This document shows, one piece after another, positions 21,201-56,452 of a DNA stretch of 64,000 bases. Location: assembly GCF_054482525.1 (NCBI RefSeq), contig NZ_CM137006.1. One strand, given 5' to 3'. How positions within the stretch are numbered: position 1 is the first letter of the stretch; the number at the start of each line of letters is the position of its first letter. The translations under genes were made by a program, and so were the position numbers. Below the pieces are notes generated by a model. It was not told the origin of the DNA. It saw nothing but the letters and a program-made list of their open reading frames with translations, and did not search any database.

Positions 21201-21337
21201 CGTGTAATGGCTGCATGAAATAAACAATAAAATATAAATAACATTATCAGCCTGCCGACGGCTTGAAGAGAGTCACAGTATCTTGTGCAACATTATTGGA
21301 AAGCGTGAGGGGCGAGGTAGCGAAGCGGAAAAATGTT

Positions 21338-21407
21338 AAAAAAAAGCCCATCGTGGGAGATGGGCAAAGACTACACACAGCAATTCGTTGTTTCACTCAG
21401 GGGATTT
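21338..21407. repeat. Left attachment-site direct repeat (duplicate of the rprA 3' end and terminator, 70 bp)
   Basis: Identical to 32979-33048: aaaaaaaagcccatcgtgggagatgggcaaagactacacacagcaattcgttgtttcactcaggggattt. Confidence 0.9.
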
Positions 21408-21424
21408 AAGTCATTGATTGATTT

Positions 21425-22054
21425 ATGGGTATGCGGTTTTTCGGCATAAACCAAATTAAGCAAGGCTTGAAAATGGACACACAAATTGCACACATATCGC
21501 ACACAAATAAAAAGGGGTATGTATGGCGCAAGCGTTATGAAAAACGCACGATTGAAATCATCCTACGCACCCGTGATAAATCAATTGCCATAAAAAGAGC
21601 GGCATCAATAACAATTCGCTATATGGAATTAAAATCACTTGACGTTCCATTTAAAGCAATGCTGGAAATGTTAAAAAAGTTTCGTGATGGTCTGATTACG
21701 TCACATGACATTGAGCGCTTAAGGTCGATTGCGATAGCTTCACAGGAAGCTCCACACGCCGCTGTAACCGCTTCGCCTATACAAAGTGTTGGCTATGATG
21801 TCAAAACCGCTCAGAAAGCCGCACAGGGGCATTCCCTTGGCGATGCTCAAAAAGTGTACTTTGGCGCCAACACCGAATGGAAAGAAAAAACCATCAAGGC
21901 TTATTCTGGTTGTATCGACCGCTTTATTTTATGGTGCGCTAATAAAAATATTCATACCGTGGAAGAAATAACGAAAGAGCATGTGATTTCATTTAAATCC
22001 AGCATGGATGAAGAAAAATTAGCCTCCATGACTAAATTTCGCATAATAATATGA
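21425..22054 (+). pseudogene. Tyrosine-integrase-like N-terminal fragment (core-binding/SAM-like region only, catalytic domain missing)
   Basis: 209-aa ORF; the segment KTIKAYSGCIDRFILWCANKNIHTVEEITKEHVISF resembles an integrase core-binding domain; no R..HxxR..Y catalytic region follows; sits next to the att repeat. Confidence 0.4.
21477..21509. repeat. Three tandem ~11-bp repeats (acacacaaatt / gcacacatatc / gcacacaaata), candidate integrase arm-type sites, left end
   Basis: Direct tandem repeats ~70 bp inside the left att repeat; a matching triplet lies ~70 bp inside the right repeat. Confidence 0.5.
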
Positions 22055-22362
22055 TTCGGGTTAGCATAACCAATACTTTTATTAAAGCCTATGTATGCAC
22101 CAATTTCTTTATACTTTAACTTAGTGAAATCTGAAATAATACTCAGTGGCTGCAATACGTTATGTCCATTGTGCGCCCCTTCATTAGCGCAAAATCCTGT
22201 ATTTGCAAACTGACCTTTATCACGCCAGATGAATCTATCAACGCCGCCACATACAGGACATGGTGTATGTTCATTTGGTTTAATATCAATTCCAAAATCA
22301 TTCATATGCACCAATGGATTCTTTTTAATATAATTATTCAAATCAGTAAAGAAATTAGCCAT
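21952..22362 (-). pseudogene. DNA primase zinc-ribbon domain fragment (Toprim and downstream domains absent)
   Basis: Motif HTPCPVCGGVDRFIWRD typical of primase Zn-ribbons; ORF stops soon after; its 3' end overlaps the convergent integrase fragment. Confidence 0.45.
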
Positions 22363-22681
22363 TATATTTGCTCCCGTATCGCCTTGCTGGATGCTTTGCA
22401 AAGAAATCAACGATATCTTGTTTGCGATACCAGATATAACCGTCTAATTCATGATGAATTTCTTGCGGAAATTCTTTAGGGTTAAAGCGTTTGGCGGCAT
22501 AAAACATTGGTTTAGTAACACCAGATAAAGCAATTGCATCATTGCCACACACAAGCCCTGTAAGTTGCACTTTCTGCGATTGTTCTTTTATCTGTGCCGC
22601 GATTAGCCTTTTATTCTCATTAACGTATTTTTCAATCTGTAGCTTACGCATTTTTTCGCGCATGTAATTTATATCGGTCAT
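22355..22681 (-). CDS. AlpA/Xis-like small DNA-binding protein, 108 aa
   Basis: C-terminal region FYAAKRFNPKEFPQE...YIWYRKQDIVDFF resembles the AlpA-family FPK...W..R..DI..W pattern. Confidence 0.45.
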   Translation of the reverse strand: MTDINYMREKMRKLQIEKYVNENKRLIAAQIKEQSQKVQLTGLVCGNDAIALSGVTKPMFYAAKRFNPKEFPQEIHHELDGYIWYRKQDIVDFFAKHPARRYGSKYNG

Positions 22682-22697
22682 TTTAGTATCCTATATA

Positions 22698-24200
22698 TTA
22701 AGTCATTATCTGTGCTGGTGGGGTAATGATATGAATTATCCCTCGATTATTCATAATGAATCTACATCGTTCAAGCCCTGTAATTGCTCGCTTTATATTA
22801 TTTGGCTGCATTTTATACTCAGTTTTTAATGCCTTCGTTAAATCGGATTCATGTACACAGCCATCAGCACTAAATTCCATTAACTGTATTATCATTTCTA
22901 AAACTCGTTCTTGTGCTGGTGCATTTTTCTTTTTTAACTCGCTCATATATGAGTCGTAAGCGAGAGTATTATTACGCGCAGCATTTTGAGTAAAATTAAC
23001 TCCTGCTTCATATGATTCTGCATTTACAGCGTTTTGCATTAATTGCTTATTTTGCTGTTGCGTTGTTAGTGGTTGCCGCTGTTGCGTGTGCATTTGCGCA
23101 TAATCATTTATCGGTGATTGCTGCATGATAAATGGTTCATCATTAGCTTGTTTGCGTTCTATTTTTCCTGCTGCAATTACTGGAGTTGGCCTATCAATAA
23201 ATACCAACGTCTTAGTATTGGCGTTTACCTGATAACCTTTTGCATTTTCTTCGGGATAATCGCATAATTCATTATTAATATCATGTAATTCACAGACGGT
23301 AATTCCGTTATCCGCTGTGCATAAATCAAATTGCATCACTGGTAATTTTGCAGCGCTACGGTTTTTTTCGATAGTGAGTGATACGGATAACCCAAAATCA
23401 TTACCCTGCATTTGCTCTAGTTTAATGACTGTATCAGAGTCATTTTTAAGGGTAATGGCTCCTTTCATACCTTTAGCCGCATCTTTGCCGCCGTGGTGAA
23501 CCATCAAGACAAAAGAATTTGTTTCTACTGCAATTCTTTTCAAAATCGAAATCAGCTTACGCATTGCAATAGCATCATTTTCATCAGGATTTTCCATATC
23601 CAAAATGGTTTTTCCATCAATGCTTTTTTTTGTGTAGTATGCCAAAAATGAAGAAAGCGTATCAAAACAAATGATGCCGCCTTTGTTATTGGTGATTTTA
23701 TTTACATCATTTATTATTCGATTCTGTATTTCTTTATCAAATAAGTTTATTTGTGGTGACAAGATGTGCATTCTGTCATTTTTAACGCCACTATTAAACT
23801 TATTAGACCACGCTGTATTTCGATCTTTGATTTCAACGCCTGTTTCACCATCAAAATAAAAAGCATGGCATTCTTTAGCAACTCGCAAACCAGCCCACGG
23901 TTTACCCTGTGCAACTCTGTTTAAAAGAGATAATGCCGCAAATGATTTGCCTGTGTTGGATTCACCATAAAGGAAGCCGACCTGTTTTCGGTTAAATAGA
24001 TTTTCAATTACAGGGCGTAACCGCTTTTCTGATTGCAATTGAATTTCAGCTAATTCAATTGCACACAATTCATCATTTATACCATCATATTCAGACCACT
24101 CACCGTAGTTGGCGGGTGCGTAATAATCAATCGCGAGAGTGTAATAATAATCAGGAATAGCAGACCAATCAATAAACATTCCTGTGCACATATCATTCAC
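22698..24200 (-). CDS. RecA-like (RepA/AAA_25-type) replication ATPase, 500 aa
   Basis: Walker A GESNTGKS near residue 80; hydrophobic strand plus HHGGKD Walker-B-like region; Q/N-rich linker and C-terminal domain; flanked by AlpA-like genes and iterons. Confidence 0.55.
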   Translation of the reverse strand: MNDMCTGMFIDWSAIPDYYYTLAIDYYAPANYGEWSEYDGINDELCAIELAEIQLQSEKRLRPVIENLFNRKQVGFLYGESNTGKSFAALSLLNRVAQGKPWAGLRVAKECHAFYFDGETGVEIKDRNTAWSNKFNSGVKNDRMHILSPQINLFDKEIQNRIINDVNKITNNKGGIICFDTLSSFLAYYTKKSIDGKTILDMENPDENDAIAMRKLISILKRIAVETNSFVLMVHHGGKDAAKGMKGAITLKNDSDTVIKLEQMQGNDFGLSVSLTIEKNRSAAKLPVMQFDLCTADNGITVCELHDINNELCDYPEENAKGYQVNANTKTLVFIDRPTPVIAAGKIERKQANDEPFIMQQSPINDYAQMHTQQRQPLTTQQQNKQLMQNAVNAESYEAGVNFTQNAARNNTLAYDSYMSELKKKNAPAQERVLEMIIQLMEFSADGCVHESDLTKALKTEYKMQPNNIKRAITGLERCRFIMNNRGIIHIITPPAQIMT

Positions 24201-24247: not shown

Positions 24248-24400
24248 TTATATAGATGCTTTGTTTTTTTTGTTTTTATCGCAAGTAACTAAATGCTCTT
24301 TTGGAAATTCTTTAGGGTTAAAACGTTTAGCCATATAAAAAGCGGTTGAGCCAATTTTAGCCAAAAGTTGTGCTTCACGAGGTGTAATTAAGTCGCTCAT
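24248..24400 (-). pseudogene. Second AlpA-like fragment (50 codons), partial duplicate of the 22355-22681 gene
   Basis: Translation MSDLITPREAQLLAKIGSTAFYMAKRFNPKEFPKEH... shares the FY-AKRFNPKEFP motif with the downstream AlpA-like gene; weak RBS; not in the ORF track (<60 aa). Confidence 0.3.
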
Positions 24401-24750: not shown

Positions 24751-24920
24751 ATTCACCTGAATATTCACCGAATGATTCACCTGAATCATTCAGCCCTTCA
24801 TTCACCACGAAACCCAGGCGCGGCGGGGCTTACAGGCCGATTCATTCACCTGAATATTCACCTGAATATTCACCTGAATTATTCAACCAAAAATTCACCT
24901 TCATATTCACTCATTCACCT
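24751..24920. repeat. Iteron array: two clusters of three 12-bp tandem repeats (ATTCACCTGAAT) plus degenerate copies
   Basis: Units at 24751, 24763, 24775 and at 24844, 24856, 24868 with further TTCACC copies; lies upstream of the Rep ATPase operon. Confidence 0.6.
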
Positions 24921-24957: not shown

Positions 24958-25236
24958 TGATGAATGAAGGTCGTTCAAGTGAATGAACTGTGAGTTGGGT
25001 AAACCCCTAGGGGTTGGGGGTGTTGTCGATTTGTGGTAAATTCCTTCTGCCAGCGTGAAAAAGGCGCTGGTGGGGATTTGCAGCCCCAAACAAACAAAAC
25101 CATTGGCAAGGAATTGCCGATGCGCGTGCGCACGTCAGTTATGGCGGTCACGGCGAGGGAGTCGAAAGGCTCGCCAGTTTTGTTTGTTTGCTGGTACTGC
25201 AAACCTCGTCGTGATCGTCACCACGGGGATGCATGT

Positions 25237-25488
25237 ATGCAGGAAACAGACTGGCACAAAGCGGATATTCTTGCCTCTTTAAAGAAAAAGAAAATCAGCA
25301 TGGCGGGATTATCCCGTGAACATGGTTTATCAAGTAGCACGTTGCTAAATGCACTTAGTAGAGAATGGCCTAGAGGCGAATTAATTATTGCTAATGCAAT
25401 TGGTGTGTCACCTCAAGAAATATGGCCTTCTAGGTATTTTGAAAAAGATGGCTCTCCAAAAAATCGTGTGATTCGTAAACCTGTTTAA
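25237..25488 (+). CDS. Ner/Nlp (SfsB)-family HTH DNA-binding regulator, ~83 aa
   Basis: MQETDWHKADILASLKKKKISMAGLSREHGLSSSTLLNALSREWPRGELIIANAIGVSPQEIWPSRY closely resembles Ner/Nlp; I prefer the internal ATG at 25237 over the 151-aa ORF start. Confidence 0.6.
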   Translation: MQETDWHKADILASLKKKKISMAGLSREHGLSSSTLLNALSREWPRGELIIANAIGVSPQEIWPSRYFEKDGSPKNRVIRKPV

Positions 25489-25705
25489 ATAAGTCAATGC
25501 GTCTCTGATTAAAAGGGGCGCATTTTTGTTTTTACTGACTTGTTGCAATGTGGGATATGTTGCGCACGTGTGTGCGATAGTTGTTAATTGTTTTTTGTAC
25601 TAGTTAACAAATACGAATTTTCTGAGGGTGCTATTTTGGGTTTTAGCTGCGGCTTCGCCTTGCTGCCCTTCGGGCTGGTGGTGCAAGAAGAATGTTTGAA
25701 AACTT

Positions 25706-25751
25706 CCTTTTCTTTGCTTCACCAGCCCCGTAGGGGCGTGAGCGTAGCGAA
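25706..25751. repeat. 46-bp direct repeat, copy 1 (ccttttctttgcttcaccagccccgtaggggcgtgagcgtagcgaa)
   Basis: Identical to 29912-29957; contains a gcccc-gta-ggggc hairpin; ~100 bp upstream of the 383-aa gene. Confidence 0.85.
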
Positions 25752-25849
25752 CCTAATCACTTTGATTTTGACACATATCGGTTCTATCATTTTCAGGAAA
25801 ATCATCATAGAATTATATAAAACATACGATTTTTAAGGTGAATTTTTAA

Positions 25850-27288: not shown

Positions 27289-27732
27289 TCAGCACTGGTA
27301 AAAGTTGGCGAGGTGTGGAATATGGCTGGTGGTGGTTTCGAAAGCCTTGAGGCGTCCATTTTTATCTTTTTTCAAGTAGAGCATTTTTAGTGCTGGTGGA
27401 AATACTGAATCCATAATTCCATAAACTCCCACATTTTCGTTTTCTTCTTTAAGCATTCCCCAATATTGATAACCATTTAATGCGCTATCATCAATGCCCG
27501 TTCCAACGCGCTTAATGTGGGCAAGATATCGGCCTTTTATCGTAAAGCTAAATGATTCATCACGTTCATTTGTGCAAGTGTAAAATCCATCATCGCTTTC
27601 ATTTATAACTTCAGATGCTTCACGATTTAATGAGTACTTGTCTAAGTTGTTTATGATGTCACTTCGCTGTGCGCATCCAGTCAAATTTAGAATGGTAAAA
27701 ATTAGTACAGAAGATGCAAGATATTTGTTCAT
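27289..27732 (-). CDS. Predicted lipoprotein, ~147 aa
   Basis: N-terminus MNKYLASSVLIFTILNLTGC carries a signal peptide with lipobox LTGC; internal ATG at 27732 preferred. Confidence 0.55.
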   Translation of the reverse strand: MNKYLASSVLIFTILNLTGCAQRSDIINNLDKYSLNREASEVINESDDGFYTCTNERDESFSFTIKGRYLAHIKRVGTGIDDSALNGYQYWGMLKEENENVGVYGIMDSVFPPALKMLYLKKDKNGRLKAFETTTSHIPHLANFYQC

Positions 27733-27818: not shown

Positions 27819-28178
27819 TTATTTGTTAATTTGTTTTTTAGTGTGTGAGATAAAATTTCTAAGTAAATCTTTTTCAATTACAATTTCACATTTTAGGTTT
27901 TGGCTATCGACCGCATCAATTCTATCAAACCAAAACATTAATTCCTGGCTTGCATCGCATTTACGTTTGAATTTAATTGCCCTGCCGAATTTTTCACTTA
28001 AAGAATCATCATCACATAAAAAATAAATTTTATTATTAATGGTGATTTGAATTAAATATGTCTTCCTCGTTAGGTAATCTAACCTTTCGTTAGCTTTCAG
28101 TAAGTTAGCTTCAGCTTGTTTGATGCGTATAAGAGCATCCTCTTTGCTTAAAGGGGATGTATTGACAGACTTGATCAT
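27819..28178 (-). CDS. Hypothetical protein, 119 aa, upstream partner of the lipoprotein
   Basis: AAGGA RBS 8 nt upstream of the ATG; co-oriented with the lipoprotein gene, 86-bp gap. Confidence 0.5.
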   Translation of the reverse strand: MIKSVNTSPLSKEDALIRIKQAEANLLKANERLDYLTRKTYLIQITINNKIYFLCDDDSLSEKFGRAIKFKRKCDASQELMFWFDRIDAVDSQNLKCEIVIEKDLLRNFISHTKKQINK

Positions 28179-28287: not shown

Positions 28288-28443
28288 ATGCCTTCTAAAC
28301 GTGTTATATGCTCACTTGATGAGCAAGAGTTAGATATTCTCGAAAAATATAAATTACATTATAAAAATATGCATGGCGTAAAATTAAACAGAACGGCAAT
28401 TATCAAAATGTTGATTAGTCGTCTATCAAAAGAAATTCAATAA
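28288..28443 (+). CDS. Ribbon-helix-helix (Arc/CopG-like) small DNA-binding protein, 51 aa
   Basis: MPSKRVICSLDEQELDILEKYKLHYKNMHGVKLNRTAIIKMLISRLSKEIQ shows a beta-strand/helix/helix pattern; GGGGA RBS; divergent from the 27819-28178 operon; below ORF-track length cutoff. Confidence 0.45.
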   Translation: MPSKRVICSLDEQELDILEKYKLHYKNMHGVKLNRTAIIKMLISRLSKEIQ

Positions 28444-28495
28444 TAATTCTAATTACCAATTAATTTAAACTTCACATAATTAAAGAGGCAACTCT

Positions 28496-28810
28496 ATGCA
28501 CACTCTTTTTTCTAAATTTAAAAACAGGAAAATTAAAATGTATCAACCACGTTATAAAAGCAGAATGATTGACGATAATGAATATAATCAGGTGCTTCAA
28601 TCGAGAATGCAAAATCTTTTAAATCAATATAATAATGAGGTTTCAAACTTAACCCGCATTGGTGTTACAAATTTGGGTTTCGGCCGATGGGATAATGGAG
28701 AGAGCAAAATCAATAACCACGTTAATAAAGTAAGTGAGACTTTGGAAAAGATGCAATCTACGCAAGCCTTGATTGATGCTCTTGCAAATGAAATTACACA
28801 AACTAATTAA
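28496..28810 (+). CDS. Hypothetical protein, 104 aa
   Basis: AAGAGG RBS 8 nt upstream; no recognisable motif. Confidence 0.45.
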   Translation: MHTLFSKFKNRKIKMYQPRYKSRMIDDNEYNQVLQSRMQNLLNQYNNEVSNLTRIGVTNLGFGRWDNGESKINNHVNKVSETLEKMQSTQALIDALANEITQTN

Positions 28811-28894
28811 TCGAATGGGGGATGCTTTAAATGGTAATCGCAATCATGGTTGTAATGTTTTGGGCTTTCCTGATTCTTAAAGAGGAAATGAAAT

Positions 28895-29179
28895 ATGGTT
28901 AAATTTGGAGTGTTTTACCATCATGCATGGGGTGATGGTAAAAAGGAAATCCCGCCACCTGATTTAAATTACATCCGAACCGATCCACATAAAAATAATG
29001 AAATTGCTTTAGATGTTTTTGATTCAAGAATGGACGCACAAAAACGCGCTGATTTACTAAATTCACGCATGGCAAAAAATCAAACTGGTCAGCATTATGT
29101 TGCGCCAACAACGCAAGAAACCAAAACGGCTCAAAAGCGCTTTAAGTTTCCTTGTACTAGCATTTATGGGTGGAAATGA
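28895..29179 (+). CDS. Hypothetical protein, 94 aa (paralog family A)
   Basis: AGAGGA RBS; N-terminus MVKFGVFYHHAWGDG is similar to the next gene's N-terminus. Confidence 0.45.
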   Translation: MVKFGVFYHHAWGDGKKEIPPPDLNYIRTDPHKNNEIALDVFDSRMDAQKRADLLNSRMAKNQTGQHYVAPTTQETKTAQKRFKFPCTSIYGWK

Positions 29180-29181
29180 AA

Positions 29182-29556
29182 ATGAGTAAACAATTCGGTG
29201 TTTTCTTTTGGCGAAAAGGTGACGCTATTACCGATATCCCGTCAGATAAAAATGTTGCAAATCGCGGAGTAAAGCCTAAGCGCATTTTTTCAGATTATAT
29301 TGATGGAATGCGATATAAAGATAAAATGAATGCAACAATTCCAGCGGCGCAAAAAGGTAAATATGAATATGTATTAGCGGAAATTGTTGAACCAGACCCG
29401 AACAATACAAAGGTGTTGTTTAAATCTGGAAATTTAACAGAAGCATTAAGGGCGAAGCGACAAACAACCGAACAAATCAACCGAAATAAAATTGATGCAA
29501 TGATTAAAGAAGCCGCACACGATTACCTTTACACTATTACAGGAATGGAAAAATGA
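29182..29556 (+). CDS. Hypothetical protein, ~124 aa (paralog family A)
   Basis: N-terminus MSKQFGVFFWRKGDA parallels the upstream gene; GGTGGA RBS; start at 29182 preferred over 29170. Confidence 0.45.
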   Translation: MSKQFGVFFWRKGDAITDIPSDKNVANRGVKPKRIFSDYIDGMRYKDKMNATIPAAQKGKYEYVLAEIVEPDPNNTKVLFKSGNLTEALRAKRQTTEQINRNKIDAMIKEAAHDYLYTITGMEK

Positions 29557-29852
29557 TTATTGACGAGCGATTTATTAAATGGTCAATGGTGCTGGTGGAG
29601 GCCGGAAAGCCATCACCCAGCCTCGCGGGGCTTTATAAAGGAAACACTAAAGGATTAATCTTTTATAAAACACGTGAATTGGCATCAAATGCAGCCACTA
29701 AACGGAATGAGCAATTAGCAGGAACTAAATCAACCAGCCGATTTAAAATCATTAAATTGCATGACGCAGAAGCACAACAGAAACATGATTTTCAGTTAAA
29801 ACAGGAACGCCAGCGCCGCGATGCACGCCATATGCGCCGATTTGGTTTCTAA
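29553..29852 (+). CDS. Hypothetical basic protein, 99 aa
   Basis: 4-bp ATGA overlap with the upstream gene suggests translational coupling; Lys/Arg-rich C-terminus. Confidence 0.4.
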   Translation: MIIDERFIKWSMVLVEAGKPSPSLAGLYKGNTKGLIFYKTRELASNAATKRNEQLAGTKSTSRFKIIKLHDAEAQQKHDFQLKQERQRRDARHMRRFGF

Positions 29853-29993: not shown

Positions 29994-31982
29994 ATGGCAG
30001 GTGAAAATGCTCAATTGGGCTTTTCCGTCGATACATCGGAAGTGGAAACAGCATCAAAAAGGCTTAATGAATTAGCTAAATCAGCGCAAGGGGCGGCTGA
30101 TTCGGCTGGCAAATTATCAGATTCATTTGAGGAAAGTATGAAGGGTGTTAATTCATCAATTACTTCCAATCATCAGGCTATGCGCGAATTAACGGTAATG
30201 ATGCACGAAGCAATGTCTGGTAATTGGTCGCGCTTGCGTGGTTCTGCAATGATTATGGGCGGCGCATTGGGATTTGGTGGATTAACTAGCGGTGCGGTAG
30301 TTGGTGGAATTACGCTTGTTTCGGAAGGCATTGAATCGCTAATTGAAGGAATGCGAGAAGCTCAAAAAGCAGAAACTGAATTAAATAATTCTGCTGTAAT
30401 TACAGCAGATGTAAGCCTTTTAAATAGTGATTATGTTGATTCACTTACTATTGGTTATGAGAAATTAGGCTATTCAGCAACACAAGCAAAAGGCATGATT
30501 GCAGCGTTAAGTAATGCGGGTATGTTTGGTGATGAATTTAGTGTTGCAGGTAAACAAATTGCCGCACTATCTAAAGCGTTAGGCGGTAATTCAGACGAAC
30601 AAAAAAAATTAGCTGGTCAATTTGGTGGCTTGTATTCTGACCCGCTAGGACACGTTAACGAATTTTTCCAAGTAACAAACGGATGGATTACCAAAACCGA
30701 ACAAAACCGAATTAATGCGGCTGAACAATCGCATAATTCAGCACAAGCTGAAATGGCTATGCAAGAAGCGCTATTAGATGTTTATAAGCGTCAAACCGAT
30801 ATGCTACAGCTTAAAGCCTATTTGGAAACTAACGCCGCTACATATTCAGCCTTTCAGACGCGCGAACAATTCGGCAGCGCATGGGGTAAGGGCGAAAAAG
30901 AAAAGGCAGACGCATTTATCAAGCAATATGACGAGCGCCAGCAATCATTTAATCAGGGCGTTGAAAAGCTAAAAGGAAGCATTCACGAAACAGGACGCCA
31001 GATAAGGGAAAATGTAGAAGAATTTAATAAAGGAATGCATCCCCATAAAGTGCATACACACCACGGATTAACAGCAATTGAGAAAGCAGCTAAACAATTG
31101 GTGACCTACCAAACCCAAATTAAACAGGCTGGTTTGCAATTTGACCAGCAAATTAATTCAATTGGTGATTCAGTAAATAATGCGTGGAGTAATAAATTAT
31201 ACTCTTATTCAATGTCTTCTGACCAGAATGATTTTGCAAACCGAATTGAACAAATCAATGAACAATTCGACCGTATGCGCGAAAATGTAGACCGTTTGGC
31301 GCTGCAACATCATAAATCAATTGGTTCAAAAGAATATGTTGAAATGTTCCAAAAAATCGAATTAGGGCGCAAAAACGTATTGGCTGAAAACGTTGCTGGA
31401 TTTAATGAAATGGAGTCATTGCAGCATTCAGCGCTGGCGGGAATGGATGAGGGATGGATTAAATACCAGAAGCAGGTTAATGATGTTGCAAGCCAATCAG
31501 AGAAAGTTTTTGATACGGCTGTTGAGGGAATGACAAATTCATTAACTGATTTCTTTACAACTGGTGAGGCTGGTTGGACTAATTTTGTAAAATCAATCGC
31601 AACAATCACTGAAAAATACATGGTTCAAGATTGGATTGTTGAGCCGCTAGCAGGATTAGTAAAAGGGGGGATTAGCTCGCTATTTTCATCAAATCCATTG
31701 AGTTCAACGGCTAACACTTTTGCCGTTCCCGATATTCCAAAATTGGGCGCAACTCATTTAGGAGGCGGTCTAGGTTCGACCGCACCAGTTATCAATATCA
31801 CCATTAATGACAATGGCAACAAAGGCGGCGTTGATAGCAATGTTAGCGGCACAACAGGGCAAGTACAAAAAATGGGGGCGGCGCTAGATAAATTCCTGCA
31901 AAACTATATCAAAGAGCAAAACGTAAAATCCAACCGTCAGGGCGGGTTAAACAAAACAATGGGGAACTGGTCGACAAGATAA
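29994..31982 (+). CDS. Phage tail tape-measure protein homolog (lambda gpH-like), 662 aa, orphan
   Basis: Glycine-rich hydrophobic segment MIMGGALGFGGLTSGAVVGGITLV near the N-terminus, long helical middle, C-terminal FDTAVEGMTNSLTDFFTTGEAGWTNFVKSI and ...VINITINDNG matching, from memory, the lambda H C-terminal region; AGAGGT RBS. Confidence 0.6.
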   Translation: MAGENAQLGFSVDTSEVETASKRLNELAKSAQGAADSAGKLSDSFEESMKGVNSSITSNHQAMRELTVMMHEAMSGNWSRLRGSAMIMGGALGFGGLTSGAVVGGITLVSEGIESLIEGMREAQKAETELNNSAVITADVSLLNSDYVDSLTIGYEKLGYSATQAKGMIAALSNAGMFGDEFSVAGKQIAALSKALGGNSDEQKKLAGQFGGLYSDPLGHVNEFFQVTNGWITKTEQNRINAAEQSHNSAQAEMAMQEALLDVYKRQTDMLQLKAYLETNAATYSAFQTREQFGSAWGKGEKEKADAFIKQYDERQQSFNQGVEKLKGSIHETGRQIRENVEEFNKGMHPHKVHTHHGLTAIEKAAKQLVTYQTQIKQAGLQFDQQINSIGDSVNNAWSNKLYSYSMSSDQNDFANRIEQINEQFDRMRENVDRLALQHHKSIGSKEYVEMFQKIELGRKNVLAENVAGFNEMESLQHSALAGMDEGWIKYQKQVNDVASQSEKVFDTAVEGMTNSLTDFFTTGEAGWTNFVKSIATITEKYMVQDWIVEPLAGLVKGGISSLFSSNPLSSTANTFAVPDIPKLGATHLGGGLGSTAPVINITINDNGNKGGVDSNVSGTTGQVQKMGAALDKFLQNYIKEQNVKSNRQGGLNKTMGNWSTR

Positions 31983-32043
31983 TATTATGTTGCTTAGTAA
32001 GTCTAAACTTTACGCCCTAATTAGGGCGTTTTATTTAAAAAAG

Positions 32044-32909: not shown

Positions 32910-32978
32910 ATCGCATACCTTTAATGACCTAATTTCTTCAAGCCCCTGCATTGCTGCGTTTGTCGTGATTTTCGGCAT

Positions 32979-33048
32979 AAAAAAAAGCCCATCGTGGGAG
33001 ATGGGCAAAGACTACACACAGCAATTCGTTGTTTCACTCAGGGGATTT
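32979..33048. repeat. Right attachment-site direct repeat (3' 70 nt of intact rprA)
   Basis: Identical to 21338-21407. Confidence 0.9.
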
Positions 33049-33084
33049 CCATGCTTATAAATCAATATGTTGATTTATAACCGT
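32979..33084 (-). ncRNA. rprA: Small regulatory RNA RprA (activator of rpoS translation)
   Basis: Minus-strand sequence ACGGTTATAAATCAACATATTGATTTATAAGCATGGAAATCCCCTGAGTGAAACAACGAATTGCTGTGTGTAGTCTTTGCCCATCTCCCACGATGGGCTTTTTTTT matches RprA from memory, including the intrinsic terminator; lies between ydiK and ydiL. Confidence 0.85.
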
Positions 33085-44166: not shown

Positions 44167-44583
44167 ATGGCTTTATTGCCGGATAAAGAAAAATTGCTGC
44201 GTAATTTTTTACGCTGCGCCAACTGGGAAGAGAAATATCTCTACATTATTGAGCTGGGCCAGCGTCTGCCAGAATTACGCGACGAAGACCGAAGCCCACA
44301 AAATAGCATTCAGGGCTGCCAGAGTCAGGTGTGGATTGTCATGCGCCAGAATGCCCAGGGAATTATTGAATTGCAGGGCGACAGCGATGCGGCGATTGTG
44401 AAAGGGCTTATTGCGGTCGTCTTTATTCTCTATGATAAAATGACGCCGCAGGATATTGTCAATTTCGATGTGCGTCCGTGGTTTGAAAAAATGGCGCTGA
44501 CCCAACATCTCACCCCATCTCGTTCACAAGGTCTGGAAGCGATGATTCGCGCAATTCGCGCCAAAGCCGCTGCACTTAGCTAA
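44167..44583 (+). CDS. sufE: Sulfur acceptor SufE, 138 aa
   Basis: 138-aa ORF; last gene of the suf operon. Confidence 0.93.
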
Positions 44584-44731
44584 ACTAAAGGGACAGCTTT
44601 CATCCGGTTGGCTCACATTGCCGGATGGTCAATGTTTACACTGACCTGCACAGGAGTGTTTTGGTTTCAGGTGAACATAAGTACCATCCGACGTTTCAGC
44701 GTGAGTCTCCGGCAAATACAGGAGGTTTACA

Positions 44732-45736
44732 ATGAAACGCGCGTCTTTGCTTACACTCACGCTTATCGGCGCTTTCAGCGCCATCCAGGCTGCCTGGGCG
44801 GTTGATTATCCGCTACCTCCAACCGGAAGCCGACTGGTTGGGCAAAATCAAACGTATACGGTGCAAGAAGGGGATAAAAACCTTCAGGCCATCGCCCGAC
44901 GTTTTGATACTGCGGCAATGTTGATCCTTGAAGCCAATAACACTATCGCCCCGGTGCCAAAACCTGGTACGACGATAACTATTCCTTCGCAACTGTTATT
45001 ACCTGATGCGCCGCGTCAGGGGATTATCGTTAACCTGGCAGAGCTGCGCCTTTATTATTATCCGCCGGGAGAAAATATCGTGCAGGTCTATCCGATAGGT
45101 ATTGGTTTGCAGGGGCTGGAAACGCCAGTGATGGAAACGCGTGTGGGGCAGAAAATCCCTAACCCAACCTGGACGCCTACGGCGGGCATTCGTCAGCGTT
45201 CGCTGGAGCGTGGCATTAAATTACCGCCAGTCGTTCCTGCCGGGCCAAATAACCCACTAGGACGTTACGCACTGCGCCTCGCGCATGGTAATGGCGAATA
45301 CCTCATTCACGGCACCAGTGCGCCGGACAGCGTCGGTTTGCGCGTCAGTTCAGGGTGTATTCGCATGAATGCACCGGATATTAAAGCCTTATTCTCCAGC
45401 GTGCGGACGGGAACGCCGGTGAAAGTGATCAACGAACCTGTGAAATATTCCGTGGAGCCTAACGGGATGCGTTATGTTGAAGTACATCGACCACTATCGG
45501 CAGAAGAACAGCAGAACGTTCAGACAATGCCATACACACTGCCAGCAGGCTTTACGCAATTTAAAGACAATAAGGGTGTAGATCAGAAATTAGTCGATAA
45601 AGCGTTGTATCGTCGGGCAGGGTATCCGGTTGCGGTGAGCAGTGGAGCAACTCCCGCAGCCAGCAATGCGCCTTCAGTAGAGTCAGCGCAGAATGGTGAA
45701 CCAGAGCAAGGGAATATGTTACGCGCGACGCAGTAG
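44732..45736 (+). CDS. ldtE: L,D-transpeptidase LdtE (YnhG), 334 aa
   Basis: Signal peptide, LysM-like N-terminus and YkuD domain with the catalytic ...SSGCIRM... region. Confidence 0.9.
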
Positions 45737-45751
45737 CGGTAAATGGCAGGC

Positions 45752-45784
45752 AAAAAAAATGGCGCACAATGTGCGCCATTTTTC
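45752..45784. terminator. Bidirectional Rho-independent terminator between ldtE and lpp
   Basis: aaaaaaaa-tggcgcacaatgtgcgcca-ttttt: perfect hairpin with A-run and T-run flanks. Confidence 0.75.
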
Positions 45785-45799
45785 ACTTCACAGGTACTA

Positions 45800-46048
<249 letters not shown>

Positions 46049-46291
46049 CTAGATTGAGTTAATCTCCATGTAGCGTTACAAGTATTACACAAAGTTTTTT
46101 ATGTTGAGAATATTTTTTTGATGGGAAGGCACTTATTTTTGATCGTTCGCTCAAAGAAGCATCGAACGCTGGGTTTTAGATAAAAAAATTGAGAGAAAAC
46201 AGGATGCTTCCATCGGATTCATCTTAGATAAAGTGAGATTATATAGTGAAATCCGATTTGATTTTTTATTGCTTCTGGTTATCGATTAAAT

Positions 46292-46316
46292 AAAAAAAGC
46301 GCCCATCAGGGCGCTT
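46292..46316 (-). terminator. Rho-independent terminator downstream of pykF
   Basis: gcgccctgatgggcgc hairpin followed by a T-run on the minus strand. Confidence 0.6.
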
Positions 46317-46346
46317 CGATATACAAATTAATTCACAAAAGCAATA

Positions 46347-47759
46347 TTACAGGACGTGAACAGATGCGGTGTTAGTAGTGCCGCTCGGTACCAGTGCACC
46401 AGAAACCATAACTACAACGTCACCTTTGTGTGCCAGACCGCTCTGCAGAGCCAGTTCTTTACCCAGACGGTAGAAATCATCAGTAGAAGTGATCTCTTTA
46501 ACCAGCTGCGGCACAACGCCTTTGCTCAGTACCAACTGATGAGCCGTTTTTTCGTTGGTGGTCAGTGCCAGGATGGTGGCATCCGGGAAGTATTTACGTA
46601 CTGCGCGAGCAGATTTACCGCCCTGGGTAGCAACCACGATCAGCGGAGCATCCAGTTTTTCAGCAGTTTCAACGGCACCACGGCATACCGCTTCGGTAAT
46701 GCGCAGTTTACGGTTGTCATTGTTGAACTCGAGACGGCTGTTCATCACGCGGTCGGTACGTTCGCAGATGGTCGCCATGATAGAAACCGCTTCCAGCGGG
46801 TATTTACCTTTTGCGGATTCACCAGACAGCATCACTGCGTCAGTACCGTCGAGGATGGCGTTTGCAACGTCACCGGCTTCTGCGCGAGTCGGGCGTGGGT
46901 TTTTGATCATGGAATCCAACATCTGGGTCGCAGTGATAACGACTTTACGTGCACGGATACATTTTTCGATCATCATCTTCTGGGCGAAGATAACTTCTTC
47001 TACCGGGATTTCTACACCCAGGTCGCCACGCGCAACCATGATGCCGTCAGAGGCTTCGAGGATTTCGTCGAAGTTGTTGAGGCCTTCCTGGTTTTCGATT
47101 TTGGAGATGATGTGGATGTTTTCGCCGCCGTGCGCTTTCAGGTGCTCACGGATTTCGATAACGTCAGAACGCTTACGAATAAAGGAAGCAGCAACAAAGT
47201 CAACGCCTTGTTCGCAACCAAAGATCAGGTCCTGTTTGTCTTTTTCAGCCAGTGCTGGCAGGGCAATGGAAACGCCTGGCAGGTTCACACCTTTGTTTTC
47301 GCCCAGGTCGCCGTTGTTCAGCACTTTACAGATAACTTTGTTACCTTCAATGGCGGTAACTTCCATACCGATCAGACCATCGTCAACCAGTACGGTGTTG
47401 CCAACAGACAGGTCAGTAGTGAAACCTTCATACGTTACCGCAACCATTTCGCTGTTGCCGATAACAGATTTATCAGTGGTGAAAGTAAAGGTCTGACCCG
47501 CTTTCAGAGAAACGTCGTTACCGCCTTCCAGTTTCATGGTGCGGATTTCCGGACCTTTGGTATCAAGCAGGATAGCGGCGGTTTTACCAGTTTTGCTCAT
47601 CACGTTGCGCAGATTCTGAATGCGCTGACCGTGTTCTGCATAGTCACCATGAGAGAAGTTCAGACGCATAACGTTCATGCCAGCGTCCAGCATTTTAGCT
47701 AACATCTCTTCAGATTCGGTTTTCGGTCCGATGGTGCAAACAATTTTGGTCTTTTTCAT
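46347..47759 (-). CDS. pykF: Pyruvate kinase I PykF, 470 aa
   Basis: Internal [41 protein letters not shown] gives 470 aa; the longer ORF-track start is not credible. Confidence 0.95.
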
Positions 47760-48315
47760 GACAGTCTTAGTCTTTAAGTTGAGAAGGATGGGAGAAACTT
47801 GCTTTCTGGGCGCACTGCCGGAAAGCGAATCCGGTATTACGAAAGTGGTGGTGCCTCGCTCTAAGGATAGGTGACATCGAAAAAGCGTGCAGAGGAATGT
47901 GTGCTTGTGTCTCAGCCCAACGTGAGTGCCTGTTTTTGAGTCGTTGAGTTCTACAGTCCAAAGTGCTGAAACCATTCAAGAGTCAATTGGCGCGCATTAT
48001 ACGCTGAAATTAATCCAAAAGGAAAACAAAAACAGCGTTTCAAAAAATATACAACTTGTTAGACAATAAATTGTTATCAAAGATTTAACGTTCCAGGGAA
48101 AAGGTTACGCAAAAACTTCGCTGTTTGCGCAACGTCTGGTGCCGGGGTTGTCAGTGTGAGGATAAGTGAGAGTTCATCCGGTGTATAAATACATCATCGC
48201 TCAATTGCTACAGTGAAAATAATTTATCGCGTTATTTGTCTGATTTTGTTTGGTTTTTGTTTAATTGGTTAGATTGATATATGCTGATAGTTGGCATGAT
48301 AAATAGGTATAAAGA

Positions 48316-48525
48316 ATGGGAAACCGGACAAAAGAGGATGAACTGTACCGAGAAATGTGCAGAGTTGTCGGTAAAGTTGTGCTGGAAATGCGCGATCTGG
48401 GGCAGGAACCAAAGCATATTGTTATCGCAGGCGTATTACGTACAGCATTAGCCAATAAACGCATTCAGCGCAGTGAGCTGGAAAAGCAGGCGATGGAAAC
48501 CGTCATTAACGCACTGGTAAAATGA
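48316..48525 (+). CDS. ydhZ: Small protein YdhZ (FumD), 69 aa
   Basis: 69-aa ORF MGNRTKEDELYREMCRVVGKVV...; synteny next to pykF. Confidence 0.8.
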   Translation: MGNRTKEDELYREMCRVVGKVVLEMRDLGQEPKHIVIAGVLRTALANKRIQRSELEKQAMETVINALVK

Positions 48526-48765
48526 CCATTCAGGATGAGGCGGTAAGCTTCATCCTGATATTCTTGCTTCAGTTGCGCTCCAGTTAATCACTCTAAATAA
48601 CAACTGCTGAAATTATACGAATTTCGGTATGTATTTTAATTTATAGCGATAATGTTATTTTTATTTTCTGCAATGAACGTCACAAATAATTGTCGCTTAA
48701 GTTAAATTTATTTCAAATGATAATAAATATCAGTTCACTTATAATTTCTTGCTTTGTGATTTTAA

Positions 48766-48779
48766 TTGATAACGATCAA
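48766..48779. promoter_or_regulatory. FNR-box-like site (TTGAT-aacg-ATCAA) upstream of ydhY
   Basis: Perfect TTGAT-N4-ATCAA in the AT-rich region upstream of the ydhYVWXUT operon, which is known to be FNR-dependent. Confidence 0.55.
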
Positions 48780-48980
48780 TGTTAAGGGCTCAGAATAATC
48801 ACATTATTTTTTCTCCTAACCATAAAGGATTAGTTTATCGGCGTTAAATCTTTTCTCATACACTATCGGGTTAGGGAAAATATCTGGTGTTGGGGACAGA
48901 GTCAGCAGCGTATTAGTTGAATGCTTAATATCAGGCTGCTGAATTGTCAGCACTGTGTTTGCGAAGAGGATGCGAAATAA

Positions 48981-51730
<2,750 letters not shown>

Positions 51731-51733
51731 GGA

Positions 51734-52381
51734 ATGGGTGAGATGAACCATCAGGATGAATTGCCGTTAGCGGAAGTCAGCGAAGTTGATGAGGCGAAGC
51801 GGCAATGGTTGCAGGGGATGCGTCACCCCGTTGATAAGGTAACCGAACCAGAACCTGCTGAAATCCTGGCAGAGTTCATTCGCCAGCATTCTGCGGCTGG
51901 GCAGCTGGTGGCGCGCGCCGTGTTTCTCTCGCCACCCTATTCGGTTGCAGAAGAGGAACTGTCAGTTTTGCTGGAAAACATTAAGCAGAACGGAGACTAC
52001 GCGGATATCGCGTGTATGACGGGAAGCCAGGATGATTACTATTACTCAACGCAGGCCATGAGTGAAAACTACGCGGCGATGTCTTTGCAAGTTGTGGAGC
52101 AGGACATTTGTCGCGCCATTGCACATGCCGTTCGTTTTGAGTGCCAGACGTATCCTCGTCCTTACAAAGTCGCCATGCTGATGCAAGCGCCATATTACTT
52201 CCAGGAAGCGCAGATTGAAGCCGCGATCGCCGCGATGGATGTTGCACCTGAATATGCCGATATACGGCAGGTGGAGTCATCGACGGCGGTGTTGTACTTG
52301 TTTAGCGAGCGATTTATGACCTATGGCAAGGCGTATGGCTTATGCGAATGGTTCGAGGTAGAGCAGTTTCAGAACCCCTGA
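51734..52381 (+). CDS. ydhW: Uncharacterised protein YdhW, 215 aa
   Basis: 215-aa ORF; operon position. Confidence 0.85.
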   Translation: MGEMNHQDELPLAEVSEVDEAKRQWLQGMRHPVDKVTEPEPAEILAEFIRQHSAAGQLVARAVFLSPPYSVAEEELSVLLENIKQNGDYADIACMTGSQDDYYYSTQAMSENYAAMSLQVVEQDICRAIAHAVRFECQTYPRPYKVAMLMQAPYYFQEAQIEAAIAAMDVAPEYADIRQVESSTAVLYLFSERFMTYGKAYGLCEWFEVEQFQNP

Positions 52382-52444
52382 AATTTCAGGGAGATGTCAT
52401 GGATAGGGTGGACAGTTGCAGCCACTGCATTAGGGGATAATCAG

Positions 52445-53113
52445 ATGTCCTTCACTCGACGCAAATTTGTTCTGGGGATGGGAACAGTAATCTTTTTTAC
52501 TGGTTCTGCGTCTTCTCTGTTAGCGAACACGAGGCAAGAAAAGAAAGTTCGGTATGCCATGATTCATGACGAGTCACGGTGCAATGGCTGTAATATTTGC
52601 GCCCGCGCATGCCGTAAAACCAATCACGTCCCCGCTCAGGGAAGCCGTTTATCGATAGCACACATTCCAGTCACCGATAACGACAACGAAACGCAGTATC
52701 ACTTTTTTCGCCAGTCATGTCAGCACTGCGAAGATGCTCCGTGCATCGACGTTTGTCCGACAGCGGCATCGTGGCGTGATGAGCAGGGGATCGTACGGGT
52801 AGAAAAATCGCAGTGCATCGGCTGCAGTTATTGCATTGGCGCTTGTCCTTACCAGGTTCGCTACCTTAACCCTGTCACTAAAGTGGCAGATAAATGTGAT
52901 TTCTGCGCTGAGTCCCGACTGGCAAAAGGCTTTCCGCCCATTTGCGTCAGCGCCTGCCCGGAACACGCCTTGATCTTTGGTCGCGAAGATAGCCCAGAAA
53001 TTCAGGCGTGGTTGCAGGAAAATAAATACTATCAATATCAGCTACCTGGTGCCGGGAAACCGCACCTGTATCGCCGGTTCGGTCAACATTTGATTAAAAA
53101 GGAAAATGTATGA
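52445..53113 (+). CDS. ydhX: Tat-signal 4Fe-4S ferredoxin-like protein YdhX, 222 aa
   Basis: Internal ATG MSFTRRKFVLGMG carries a twin-arginine motif; Cys clusters. Confidence 0.88.
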   Translation: MSFTRRKFVLGMGTVIFFTGSASSLLANTRQEKKVRYAMIHDESRCNGCNICARACRKTNHVPAQGSRLSIAHIPVTDNDNETQYHFFRQSCQHCEDAPCIDVCPTAASWRDEQGIVRVEKSQCIGCSYCIGACPYQVRYLNPVTKVADKCDFCAESRLAKGFPPICVSACPEHALIFGREDSPEIQAWLQENKYYQYQLPGAGKPHLYRRFGQHLIKKENV

Positions 53114-53895
53114 ACCCGTCGCAACATGCTGAACAGTTTCAGAGCCAGTTGGCGAACTATGTGCCACAGTTCACTCCCCAATTTTGGCCGGTGTGGTTGA
53201 TCATTGCCGGACTATTGCTGGTAGGGATGTGGTTGGTGCTGGGGCTGCATGCCTTGCTTCGTGCTCGTGGCGTGAAGAAATCAGCCACCGATCATGGTGA
53301 GAAGATTTATCTTTACAGCAAAGCGGTCAGATTATGGCACTGGTCGAATGCGTTACTCTTTGTATTGTTGCTGGCAAGTGGGCTGATAAATCACTTTGCG
53401 CTGGTGGGCGCAACTGCGGTTAAAAGTCTGGTTGCGGTGCATGAAGTTTGCGGATTTTTGTTACTGGCATGCTGGCTTGGCTTTGTTCTGATCAATGCCG
53501 TTGGGGGTAATGGTCACCACTATCGCATTCGTCGTCAGGGGTGGCTGGAGCGAGCGGCAAAACAAACGCGATTCTATTTGTTTGGCATTATGCAGGGGGA
53601 AGAACATCCTTTCCCGGCAACAACCCAGTCTAAATTTAATCCCTTACAGCAGGTTGCCTATCTTGGTGTCATGTATGGATTGCTGCCGTTGTTACTATTG
53701 ACGGGGCTGCTGTGTCTCTATCCGCAAGCCGTGGGAGATGTGTTTCCTGGCGTAAGATACTGGTTATTGCAGGCGCATTTTGCTCTGGCATTTATAAGCC
53801 TCTTTTTTATCTTCGGTCATCTTTATCTTTGCACCACGGGGCGTACGCCACACGAAACCTTTAAAAGCATGGTCGATGGCTATCACCGGCACTAA
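53110..53895 (+). CDS. ydhU: Membrane cytochrome b-like protein YdhU (PhsC-like), 261 aa
   Basis: Multi-TM ORF; 4-bp overlap with ydhX. Confidence 0.88.
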   Translation: MNPSQHAEQFQSQLANYVPQFTPQFWPVWLIIAGLLLVGMWLVLGLHALLRARGVKKSATDHGEKIYLYSKAVRLWHWSNALLFVLLLASGLINHFALVGATAVKSLVAVHEVCGFLLLACWLGFVLINAVGGNGHHYRIRRQGWLERAAKQTRFYLFGIMQGEEHPFPATTQSKFNPLQQVAYLGVMYGLLPLLLLTGLLCLYPQAVGDVFPGVRYWLLQAHFALAFISLFFIFGHLYLCTTGRTPHETFKSMVDGYHRH

Positions 53896-53898
53896 CGA

Positions 53899-54711
53899 AT
53901 GATCATTACACGAGCAGACCTGCGAGAATGGCGTATCGGAGCGGTGATGTATCGCTGGTTTCTGCGCCATTTCCCACGCGGCGGTAGTTATGCCGATATT
54001 CATCATGCACTGATTGAGGAAGGATATACGGACTGGGCGGAGAGTCTAGTTGAGTATGCGTGGAAAAAATGGCTGGCGGATGAAAACTTCGCGCATCAGG
54101 AAGTTTCTTCTATGCAAAAACTGGCCACAGATCCCGGAGAGAGACCATTTTGCAGTCAGTTTGCCCGCAGCGACGATCATGCTCGCATCGGCTGTTGTGA
54201 GGATAATGCCAGAATCGCAACTGCTGGGTATGCCGCGCAAATTGCCAGTATGGGTTATAGCGTGCGGATTGGAAGTGTCGGCTTTAACAGTCACATTGGC
54301 AGCTCCGGTGAACGCGCACGGGTTGCTGTAACCGGTAATTCTTCGCGGATAAGCAGCGCTGGAGATAGTAGTCGGATTGCGAATACCGGAATGCGAGTAC
54401 GCGTTTGTACATTGGGTGAACGGTGTCATGTCGCCAGTAATGGTGACCTGGTGCAAATCGCCAGCTTTGGCGCAAACGCCAGAATTGCCAACAGCGGCGA
54501 CAATGTACACATCATTGCCAGCGGTGAAGATTCAACAATAGTGAGCACGGGCGTGGTCGACTCAATTATTCTCGGGCCAGGGGGAAGCGCCGCACTGGCA
54601 TATCATGACGGCGAAAGAGTTCGCTTCGCCGTCGCCATTGAAGGTGAAAACAATATTCGAGCCGGAGTCCGCTATCGCCTTAATGAACAGCATCAGTTTG
54701 TTGAGTGCTGA
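53899..54711 (+). CDS. ydhT: Uncharacterised protein YdhT, 270 aa
   Basis: 270-aa ORF; last gene of the ydhYVWXUT operon. Confidence 0.85.
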   Translation: MIITRADLREWRIGAVMYRWFLRHFPRGGSYADIHHALIEEGYTDWAESLVEYAWKKWLADENFAHQEVSSMQKLATDPGERPFCSQFARSDDHARIGCCEDNARIATAGYAAQIASMGYSVRIGSVGFNSHIGSSGERARVAVTGNSSRISSAGDSSRIANTGMRVRVCTLGERCHVASNGDLVQIASFGANARIANSGDNVHIIASGEDSTIVSTGVVDSIILGPGGSAALAYHDGERVRFAVAIEGENNIRAGVRYRLNEQHQFVEC

Positions 54712-54716
54712 TAGCT

Positions 54717-56327: not shown

Positions 56328-56452
56328 TGTTACTTACCTGTACGCATTCTTTCGAATTTAGTGTTATCAGATAAGTTTGGTTGAGATTTTTAGAATTTGA
56401 GAAATTTCAGACAGGGATGAAAAGGGCGCTAACCGCCCTTGATTAAATTCTG

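Follow-up and report, generated by a model that had tools for sequence, protein, structure and literature searches.

A lambda-type tape-measure homolog on a putative P4-related satellite island of enterobacteria

The DNA analysed here (contig NZ_CM137006.1 of RefSeq assembly GCF_054482525.1, 64,000 nt, hereafter the window) harbours a small integrated island located between ydiL and ydiK. The last core gene of this island encodes a 662-aa protein related to the tape-measure proteins (TMPs) of lambda-type phages. The island is bounded by 71-nt perfect direct repeats with a spacing of 11,641 bp, and its G+C content (32-42% over the stretch from about 22 to 33 kb) departs from that of the window, which is otherwise near 50%. 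Scans of all island open reading frames (ORFs) with PHROGs and PADLOC revealed no further tail gene and no head, packaging or lysis gene, in agreement with the original prediction, made from the sequence alone, of an orphan TMP on a small island. The gene is intact, as had also been claimed, comprising 662 codons and a stop, and the ribosome-binding site that had been called good is AGAGG, 8 nt 5' of the ATG. A terminator follows it.

The assignment as a tape measure was borne out by several independent comparisons. In profile searches, the protein matched the Pfam family PF09718 (Tape_meas_lam_C) at aa 480-553 (E 9.6e-15) as well as the PHROG tape-measure families 339 and 24 (E 3.5e-21 and 5.8e-20). 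BLASTP aligned aa 42-257, including a glycine-rich segment, with residues 221-445 of the phi80 TMP (E 3e-10), and aa 354-578 with its residues 697-916 (E 3e-11). Two regions were likewise matched in lambda gpH, aa 93-217 with residues 113-234 (E 3e-4) and aa 381-549 with residues 536-698 (E 7e-9), and in both partners the matched regions are collinear with those of the island protein. The profile of the island family additionally matched lambda gpH of known structure (8iyk_H) and two other solved tape measures. The glycine-rich hydrophobic segment, which had been pointed out beforehand, spans aa 85-110; it is kept in all family members and aligns with the equivalent segments of phi80 and lambda. 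A similarity to the C-terminal region of gpH had been proposed as well, and this held in part: it is significant for aa 381-549, while the motif VINITINDNGNKGG at the far C-terminus has no significant match in gpH and only a weak, collinear one in phi80 (E 0.39).

Tape measures modelled as monomers are expected to give AlphaFold folds of low confidence. This was the case here (AlphaFold2, pLDDT 44), and secondary structure alone was therefore used. As assigned by DSSP, it consists of a near-continuous helix from aa 15 to 557, a non-helical stretch at 558-620 and a final helix. Given the two collinear matched regions and the near-continuous helix, the protein is a genuine homolog of the lambda gpH type that is shortened (662 aa vs 853 aa of gpH, as had been stated) and architecturally complete. 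We regard this identification as robust.

Next, the distribution and conservation of the gene were considered. Clustered at 90% identity, the tape-measure family comprises 24 clusters from E. coli, several subspecies of Salmonella, Citrobacter, Enterobacter and Phytobacter, with identity down to 33%. Twenty of these clusters are full length (658-730 aa); in one relative (L015) it is split into ORFs of 427 and 256 aa. The islands examined were those of the window (L001), L002, L003/4, L005/6, L007, L011/12, L013/14, L015, L016, L017 and Phytobacter. In every one of them the core genes end with the tape measure, and the same architecture was found in every fetched locus, with island sizes of 11.6-13 kb. 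One Salmonella copy with the tape-measure gene resides at a different integration site. Among 5426 complete E. coli genomes, five carry the island backbone, and the tape-measure gene is present in all five. Comparisons across islands gave ratios of nonsynonymous to synonymous substitution rates (dN/dS) of 0.19 and 0.28, indicative of purifying selection.

The family is constrained in length far more than in sequence. The central segment between E114 and H356 measures 238-253 aa in all 20 members (standard deviation 4.5) while its identity sinks to 18-20%, and the spacing between invariant anchor residues is almost fixed across the family. The N-terminal stretch changes in discrete steps, being 63 aa long in the clade of the window, about 99-103 aa in most members and 118 aa in one. 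Judged from these alignments, the family varies as one would predict for a length ruler whose ends are specific. The gene is also mosaic. Between the window and the complete island of E. coli FREC5, the tape-measure genes are near-identical over aa 1-400 (dS 0.1-0.2) and strongly diverged beyond (dS 0.7-1.6), the C-terminal third with its Tape_meas_lam_C domain having been swapped. A region-by-region identity matrix distinguished four regions of the protein with incongruent similarity patterns across the family. Such modular recombination would be expected if the ends have to fit different helper parts. Overall, tape-measure identity across islands is 88, 53, 38 and 34%, and the small ORFs upstream vary alongside; among backbone proteins, the HTH_35 regulator retains 92-99% identity and the 108-aa and 119-aa proteins 75-94%.

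No close relatives of the gene were detected in phages. The closest proteins among 50,697 phage records belong to the phi80/mEp043 group and share about 25% identity over about a third (35%) of the protein. In IMG/VR, the closest real phage proteins are 957-aa tape measures with 27-29% identity, located in ordinary lambda-like tail modules. From this absence of close phage homologs it can be inferred that the tape-measure clade has long evolved inside islands and is not recent prophage debris. At the DNA level, the only match of the island to the same phage records was its C4 RNA region, which is about 76% identical to antirepressor regions of Stx phages and gives no clue to a helper. Coordinates of the tape-measure gene and of all other features are compiled in Table 1.

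Table 1. Features of the island in the window, with further copies of the 32-nt element in two related islands
Feature	Coordinates	Strand	Remarks
attL	21337-21407		71-nt repeat; hybrid rprA 21336-21456 (-), Rfam RprA 81.4 bits
Truncated tyrosine integrase, N-terminal SAM-like half	21473-22054	+	81% to first 192 aa of 401-aa FREC5 integrase
Island primase fragment, N-terminal zinc-binding	21952-22362	-	full 330-aa primase in FREC5
Conserved 108-aa backbone protein	22355-22681	-	82-89% identity across islands
AAA_25 / D5-like replicative helicase	22698-24200	-	PHROG 2850 and 3228, E ~1e-33; Pfam AAA_25 in relatives
Iterons (ATTCACCTGAAT units), putative replication origin	24751-24911		direct-repeat family
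C4 loop target CAAACAAACAAAAC	25087-25100	+	perfect complement of C4 RNA loop; analogue of P4 seqA
C4/CI-type antisense immunity RNA	25137-25225	+	Rfam RF01695, 65.8 bits (gathering score 45)
HTH_35 (Ner/SfsB-like) regulator	25237-25488	+	PHROG 769, E 7e-30; NF007670 SfsB, 96.8 bits
Intrinsic terminator after HTH_35 regulator	25496-25524
Imperfect palindrome of ~100 nt before cargo slot	25650-25755		island-specific; invariant 32-nt core 25720-25751; z -4.75
Variable cargo gene, 383 aa	25850-27001	+	PGAP: HEPN; identity 72%, 83%, 31% elsewhere, absent in L007
Variable predicted lipoprotein	27289-27732	-	lipobox LTGC; 95%, 40%, 22% identity across islands
Conserved 119-aa backbone protein	27819-28178	-	75-94% identity across islands
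Operon of five small proteins upstream of tape measure	28288-29852	+	translations
51-aa RHH-like protein	28288-28443	+	first of the operon
90/104-aa protein	to 28810	+	second of the operon; isoelectric point 5.7 (90-aa form)
94-aa protein	28895-29179	+	third of the operon
124-aa protein	29182-29556	+	fourth of the operon; position of lambda G/T
99-aa protein	29553-29852	+	fifth of the operon; position of lambda G/T
Invariant 32-nt core element CACCAGCCCCGTAGGGGCGTGAGCGTAGCGAA	29926-29957	+	contains hairpin; ends 37 nt upstream of tape-measure ATG
Tape-measure homolog	29994-31982	+	last core gene of island; 662 codons and stop, intact
Terminator after tape-measure gene	32012-32029
Cargo gene after tape measure, 205 aa	32044-32661	-	absent in FREC5; in Enterobacter islands; PIN_12 gene instead in E. 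coli S10
attR	32978-33048		71-nt repeat within intact rprA 32977-33084 (-), Rfam RprA 118.8 bits
32-nt element in L003	291-322, 5986-6017, 9934-9965
32-nt element in L007	1619-1650, 6776-6807, 9941-9972

The 71-nt repeat represents the 3' part of the small RNA gene rprA, which places the integration site at the rprA 3' end. The hybrid copy at the left end of the island is called rprA by annotation pipelines as well. We found no description of rprA as an attachment site in the literature.

The backbone of the island is related to that of satellite P4. The loop of its C4 RNA, GUUUUGUUUGUUUG, is perfectly complementary to CAAACAAACAAAAC, situated 37 nt upstream of the RNA, and the CI RNA of P4 falls into the same Rfam family with a comparable score (74.9 bits vs 65.8 bits for the island). 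The C4 leader of about 200 nt is nearly 100% identical in five islands of E. coli, Citrobacter and Salmonella. The full-length primase of the FREC5 island matches the primase domain of P4 alpha (E 2.4e-18), and the island helicase, of the AAA_25 or DUF3987 type, is a protein separate from the primase. Between the divergent replication and immunity operons lie the iterons, two clusters of 12-nt ATTCACCTGAAT units around a GC-rich spacer. In L005 and L007 both the helicase and the iterons differ from those of the window; the iterons thus change together with the helicase, which is what a pairing of origin and initiator would predict. The GC-rich block between the iterons (about 24808-24840) was also considered as a cos site and rejected, being neither conserved between islands nor matched by P4 cos. 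As for the genes by which P4 acts on its helper, no BLASTP match to Sid, Delta, Psu or Epsilon was obtained on the island at E <= 0.01, and the small ORFs had no PHROG match. PHROG and Pfam searches of the island ORFs were also negative for AlpA with packaging-redirection genes and for capsid, portal and small-terminase genes, and no conjugation or mobilisation genes were found among these ORFs. Taken together, the gene content suggests that the island is a distant cousin of P4, a phage-satellite-like element without capsid, terminase, lysis or other tail genes.

Two variable cargo slots, occupied in the window by the 383-aa and the 205-aa gene, flank the late module; a further cargo gene of this kind lies in L013 (12993-14138). 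Neither the 383-aa nor the 205-aa gene had a Pfam or PADLOC match. The layout of these slots resembles that of the defence hot spots of other satellites. The variable lipoprotein gene of the window could encode a surface or exclusion factor. We also observed a 44-nt direct repeat (84% identity; 22461-22504 and 24297-24340) in the 5' parts of the 108-aa ORF and a 50-aa ORF, both on the minus strand, which suggests that the two proteins have related N-termini.

The slots and the tape-measure gene have one element in common, namely the invariant 32-nt sequence CACCAGCCCCGTAGGGGCGTGAGCGTAGCGAA. It shows no mismatches in the islands of E. coli, Citrobacter and Enterobacter and one or two in those of Salmonella (L007). 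Every tape-measure start codon has a copy of it upstream, the end of which is 29-38 nt away. The copies at cargo slots and behind the integrase gene belong to an imperfect palindrome of about 100 nt (z about -5), of which they make up the right arm; before the tape-measure gene, no more than this arm has been kept. It was found solely in island-bearing genomes, by which a general enterobacterial repeat was rejected. No Rfam family matched it, and RNAalifold yielded the invariant hairpin alone, with no covariation. By its placement, the element links the tape-measure gene to the cargo slots, presumably in regulation or recombination. Candidate roles are a promoter or operator, an RNA element, an insulator or a recombination junction.

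Another question concerned the five small ORFs directly upstream, the last two of which (124 and 99 aa) occupy the position of lambda G/T. Across islands, changes in this module go together with changes in the N-terminal two thirds of the tape measure. Four of the five proteins have isoelectric points (pI) of 9.5-10.5, the 90-aa protein being the exception; the 124-aa and 99-aa proteins are basic (pI 9.5 and 10.5), in contrast to G/T of lambda and phi80 with values of 4.1-5.0. None of the small proteins matched a PHROG, and the 124-aa and 99-aa ORFs showed no BLASTP similarity to G/T of lambda or phi80. The 124-aa protein was modelled by AlphaFold2 with moderate quality (pLDDT 66) as a beta-beta-alpha-beta core with a long helix, and Foldseek searches of PDB and BFVD with this model returned no chaperone fold. 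The -1 frame relation of the two ORFs results from an ATGA overlap and not from a conserved slippery site. A role of the two as G/GT chaperones is therefore unsupported, and the claim that the island carries no tail chaperone gene stands. The 99-aa family is represented by only 6 clusters in 1.84 billion proteins. The 94-, 124- and 99-aa proteins appear to share a beta-beta-alpha-beta pattern (FGVF..., ...IF..., helix, strand) with weak BLASTP similarity (E 0.2), and judging from this pattern they may be distant paralogs.

The window holds a damaged copy of the island. Complete islands are carried by E. coli FREC5 and S10, accessions NZ_CP180702 and CP010229. In FREC5 the integrase has 401 aa and the primase 330 aa, and genes for a GIY-YIG nuclease and for an additional protein of 96 aa are present. 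Compared with FREC5, the window copy has suffered a deletion of 1,874 bp at 22036|22037 (5905->7780 in L002), which took the catalytic half of the integrase, the GIY-YIG gene and two thirds of the primase; it has gained about 0.86 kb with the 205-aa gene. The same deletion is present in strain 19KM1776, whose island differs from the window copy by one mismatch in 12 kb, from which we infer that the deletion is recent. In PCN033 and SCU-102, the tape-measure and immunity regions are identical to those of the window.

How can a lone tape-measure gene on such an island be explained? The original prediction had offered three possibilities, of which a substitute tape measure encoded by a satellite is the best supported, given the satellite architecture, the conserved, length-constrained core gene and the precedent of the PLEs of Vibrio cholerae. 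According to this explanation, the island would depend on a helper siphovirus, and its protein would enter the tails of that helper and affect their length. We assign it a probability of about 0.5. In detail, when a helper of the lambda/phi80 type develops in the cell, the island would be derepressed and would replicate, and its tape measure would be made. The protein would then enter helper tail assembly, replacing or competing with the tape measure of the helper itself. It would be anchored in the tail-tip complex of the helper by its conserved Tape_meas_lam_C region at the C-terminus, its helical body would set the length of the tube, and the satellite genome would be carried by the chimeric tails thus formed. 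Helical tape measures account for 1.5 A of tail per residue. At this value, the expected lengths are about 99 nm for the 662-aa protein and about 106 nm for relatives of 702-713 aa, whereas lambda gpH and phi80 come to about 128 nm and about 157 nm in the same calculation. One may speculate that the pay-offs would be tails and a DNA-entry channel fitted to the satellite, escape from blocks directed at the tape measure of the helper, or a lowered helper yield.

Several observations weigh against a substitute tape measure. The curated model TIGR01541 scored 82.2 bits over aa 368-576 and did not reach its equivalog-domain cut-off of 104.75; other proteins of the island family obtained 58-83 bits, in comparison with 449 for lambda gpH and 284 for phi80. 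No tail assembly chaperone was detectable on the island by PHROG, BLASTP or Foldseek searches, and PLEs encode their own. No helper phage was identified. As for packaging signals, lambda cosN gave matches at chance level only, all of them outside the island, and the 19-nt cos of P2/P4 had no match with <=5 mismatches in five islands. The family is also rare, the island element being present in one of 100,044 species-representative genomes. In the window itself, the loss of half the integrase and most of the primase means that this copy is not expected to excise or replicate on its own, and its tape-measure gene is at best a stranded satellite gene. Finally, since the upstream 32-nt element is common to the tape-measure gene and the defence-like cargo slots, the gene might be expressed like cargo and not late. 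A separate observation concerns L017 (IMGVR_UViG_2825488710_000004, 44478-56604), an island with a 708-aa tape measure at the end of a 56.6-kb predicted viral region, in which other genes stand in for part of the replication and immunity region. A neighbouring prophage, and with it a helper candidate, might be located in the 44 kb upstream.

The shared upstream element and the location between slots with defence-like genes (HEPN according to PGAP, PIN_12 in S10, and the 205-aa gene) would also suit a decoy, that is, a competing or dominant-negative tape measure which poisons lambdoid tail assembly or blocks DNA entry and protects the host instead of serving island transfer. Interference of satellite genes with tail assembly is known from the Tai systems (PMC11364771) and from Rta of PLE11, and the gene has remained intact in an island copy that lost integrase and primase. 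This last point carries little weight, because the deletion is recent. A decoy would need neither ruler-like segment lengths at about 19% identity nor the full collinear architecture, the gene belongs to the invariant core and not to the variable cargo, and PADLOC did not match it. We therefore consider a decoy, and with it exclusion or defence as the third possibility offered originally, unlikely, although interference could coexist with a structural role.

Two further explanations were weighed. The 1.9-kb deletion in the window copy, the split gene in one relative and the solitary position of the gene, without any other tail gene, are what a functionless remnant of a degraded lambdoid prophage would leave behind. 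This was the first of the possibilities offered originally, and for the gene we reject it as hardly credible: the same architecture of 11-13 kb, with the gene in the same place, recurs in five genera whose tape measures are as little as 33% identical, dN/dS is 0.19-0.28, identity to the nearest phage or prophage proteins does not exceed about 25-29%, and the backbone is a replicon with immunity of the P4 type, not a lambdoid one. The island might alternatively be an integrative element which co-opted a tape-measure-like protein for a membrane- or periplasm-spanning role, for example as a channel for its own DNA transfer. The conserved hydrophobic glycine-rich segment would fit such a channel, as would the fact that packaging signal, helper and chaperone were none of them identified. 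We nevertheless judge this very improbable, as conjugation and mobilisation genes were not found on the island, the C-terminal domain is the one seated in lambda-type tails, and regulation and primase are those of phage satellites.

Returning to the substitute tape measure, a more specific model can be put forward tentatively. In this model, the islands form a P4-related family of enterobacterial satellites that has escaped description and that possesses a modular tape measure as its sole virion gene. Without a chaperone of its own, the satellite would contribute to the tail of a lambdoid helper nothing but the internal ruler and DNA-entry protein. The end modules would be swapped by recombination to match different helpers or to escape exclusion or defence directed at the tape measure, and the 32-nt element may couple the gene to cargo expression. 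If a satellite-encoded tape measure of this kind is indeed at work, tail manipulation by satellites would extend to siphoviruses and to E. coli, Salmonella, Citrobacter and Enterobacter, the hosts in which lambda-type tail assembly and tape-measure-dependent DNA entry are best understood and genetics is easy. No known case would be as minimal as this one, in which the tape measure stands without chaperone, hub or capsid genes. Selection of a foreign tape measure into helper tails would become testable, as would the tip- and head-proximal ends as determinants of helper specificity and the contribution of a private tape measure to satellite entry into exclusion-protected cells. The backbone itself represents a new satellite type, likely to be overlooked by current satellite finders, which look for psu/sid/delta, alpA or capsid genes.

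Literature searches by protein accession and by island type retrieved no description of the island family. The family, the combination of P4-type immunity with a lambda-type tape measure as sole virion gene, and the invariant element thus appear to be undescribed. The class of mechanism is already known. Satellites with a tape-measure gene include some cf-PICIs, which carry putative tmp genes (PMC12987554), and mycobacterial EPIPs, for which such a gene has been reported. These satellites encode capsid, portal, connector and small-terminase genes, whereas the island has no recognisable head or packaging gene. The island resembles P4 in its size (about 11.6-13 kb), its tyrosine integrase, its primase, which is homologous to the corresponding domain of alpha, its C4/CI RNA with a complementary target upstream, and its variable cargo slots. 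It differs from P4 in having no homologs of Sid, Delta, Psu or Epsilon and no P2-type cos, in its separate helicase, in its Ner-like and not Vis/AlpA-like regulator, in integrating into rprA and not into a tRNA gene, and in its siphovirus-type tape measure, which P4 does not possess.

Compared with lambda gpH and phi80 gp15, the island protein exhibits the same Tape_meas_lam_C domain, a collinear N-terminal hydrophobic region and an all-helical body. It is shorter than both (662 aa vs 853 and 1045 aa) and only 20-25% identical over the aligned parts, its N-terminal 40 aa with an LGFSVDTS motif are specific to the island family, and its gene does not lie within a V-G-T-H-M-L-K-I-J tail module. 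The entry of a satellite tape measure into helper tails was demonstrated recently, and only for a myovirus-PLE pair in Vibrio cholerae, where the PLE TMP replaces that of ICP1 in virions and makes tails about 10 nm shorter, and where about 99.9% of transduction depends on it (PMC12987554, Nature 2026). The helpers of PLEs are myoviruses, and a satellite chaperone, often together with a baseplate hub, accompanies the PLE TMP; the island TMP is of the lambda/siphovirus type, and neither partner is detectable beside it. The hosts of the island are Enterobacteriaceae, its backbone is unrelated to that of PLEs, and it is known here from sequence alone. What the two systems share is a tape measure carried by a small integrative satellite without most virion genes, conserved in all variants of the element and distant from its phage counterparts, with about 20% identity to that of the helper for PLE and about 25-29% to the nearest phage for the island.

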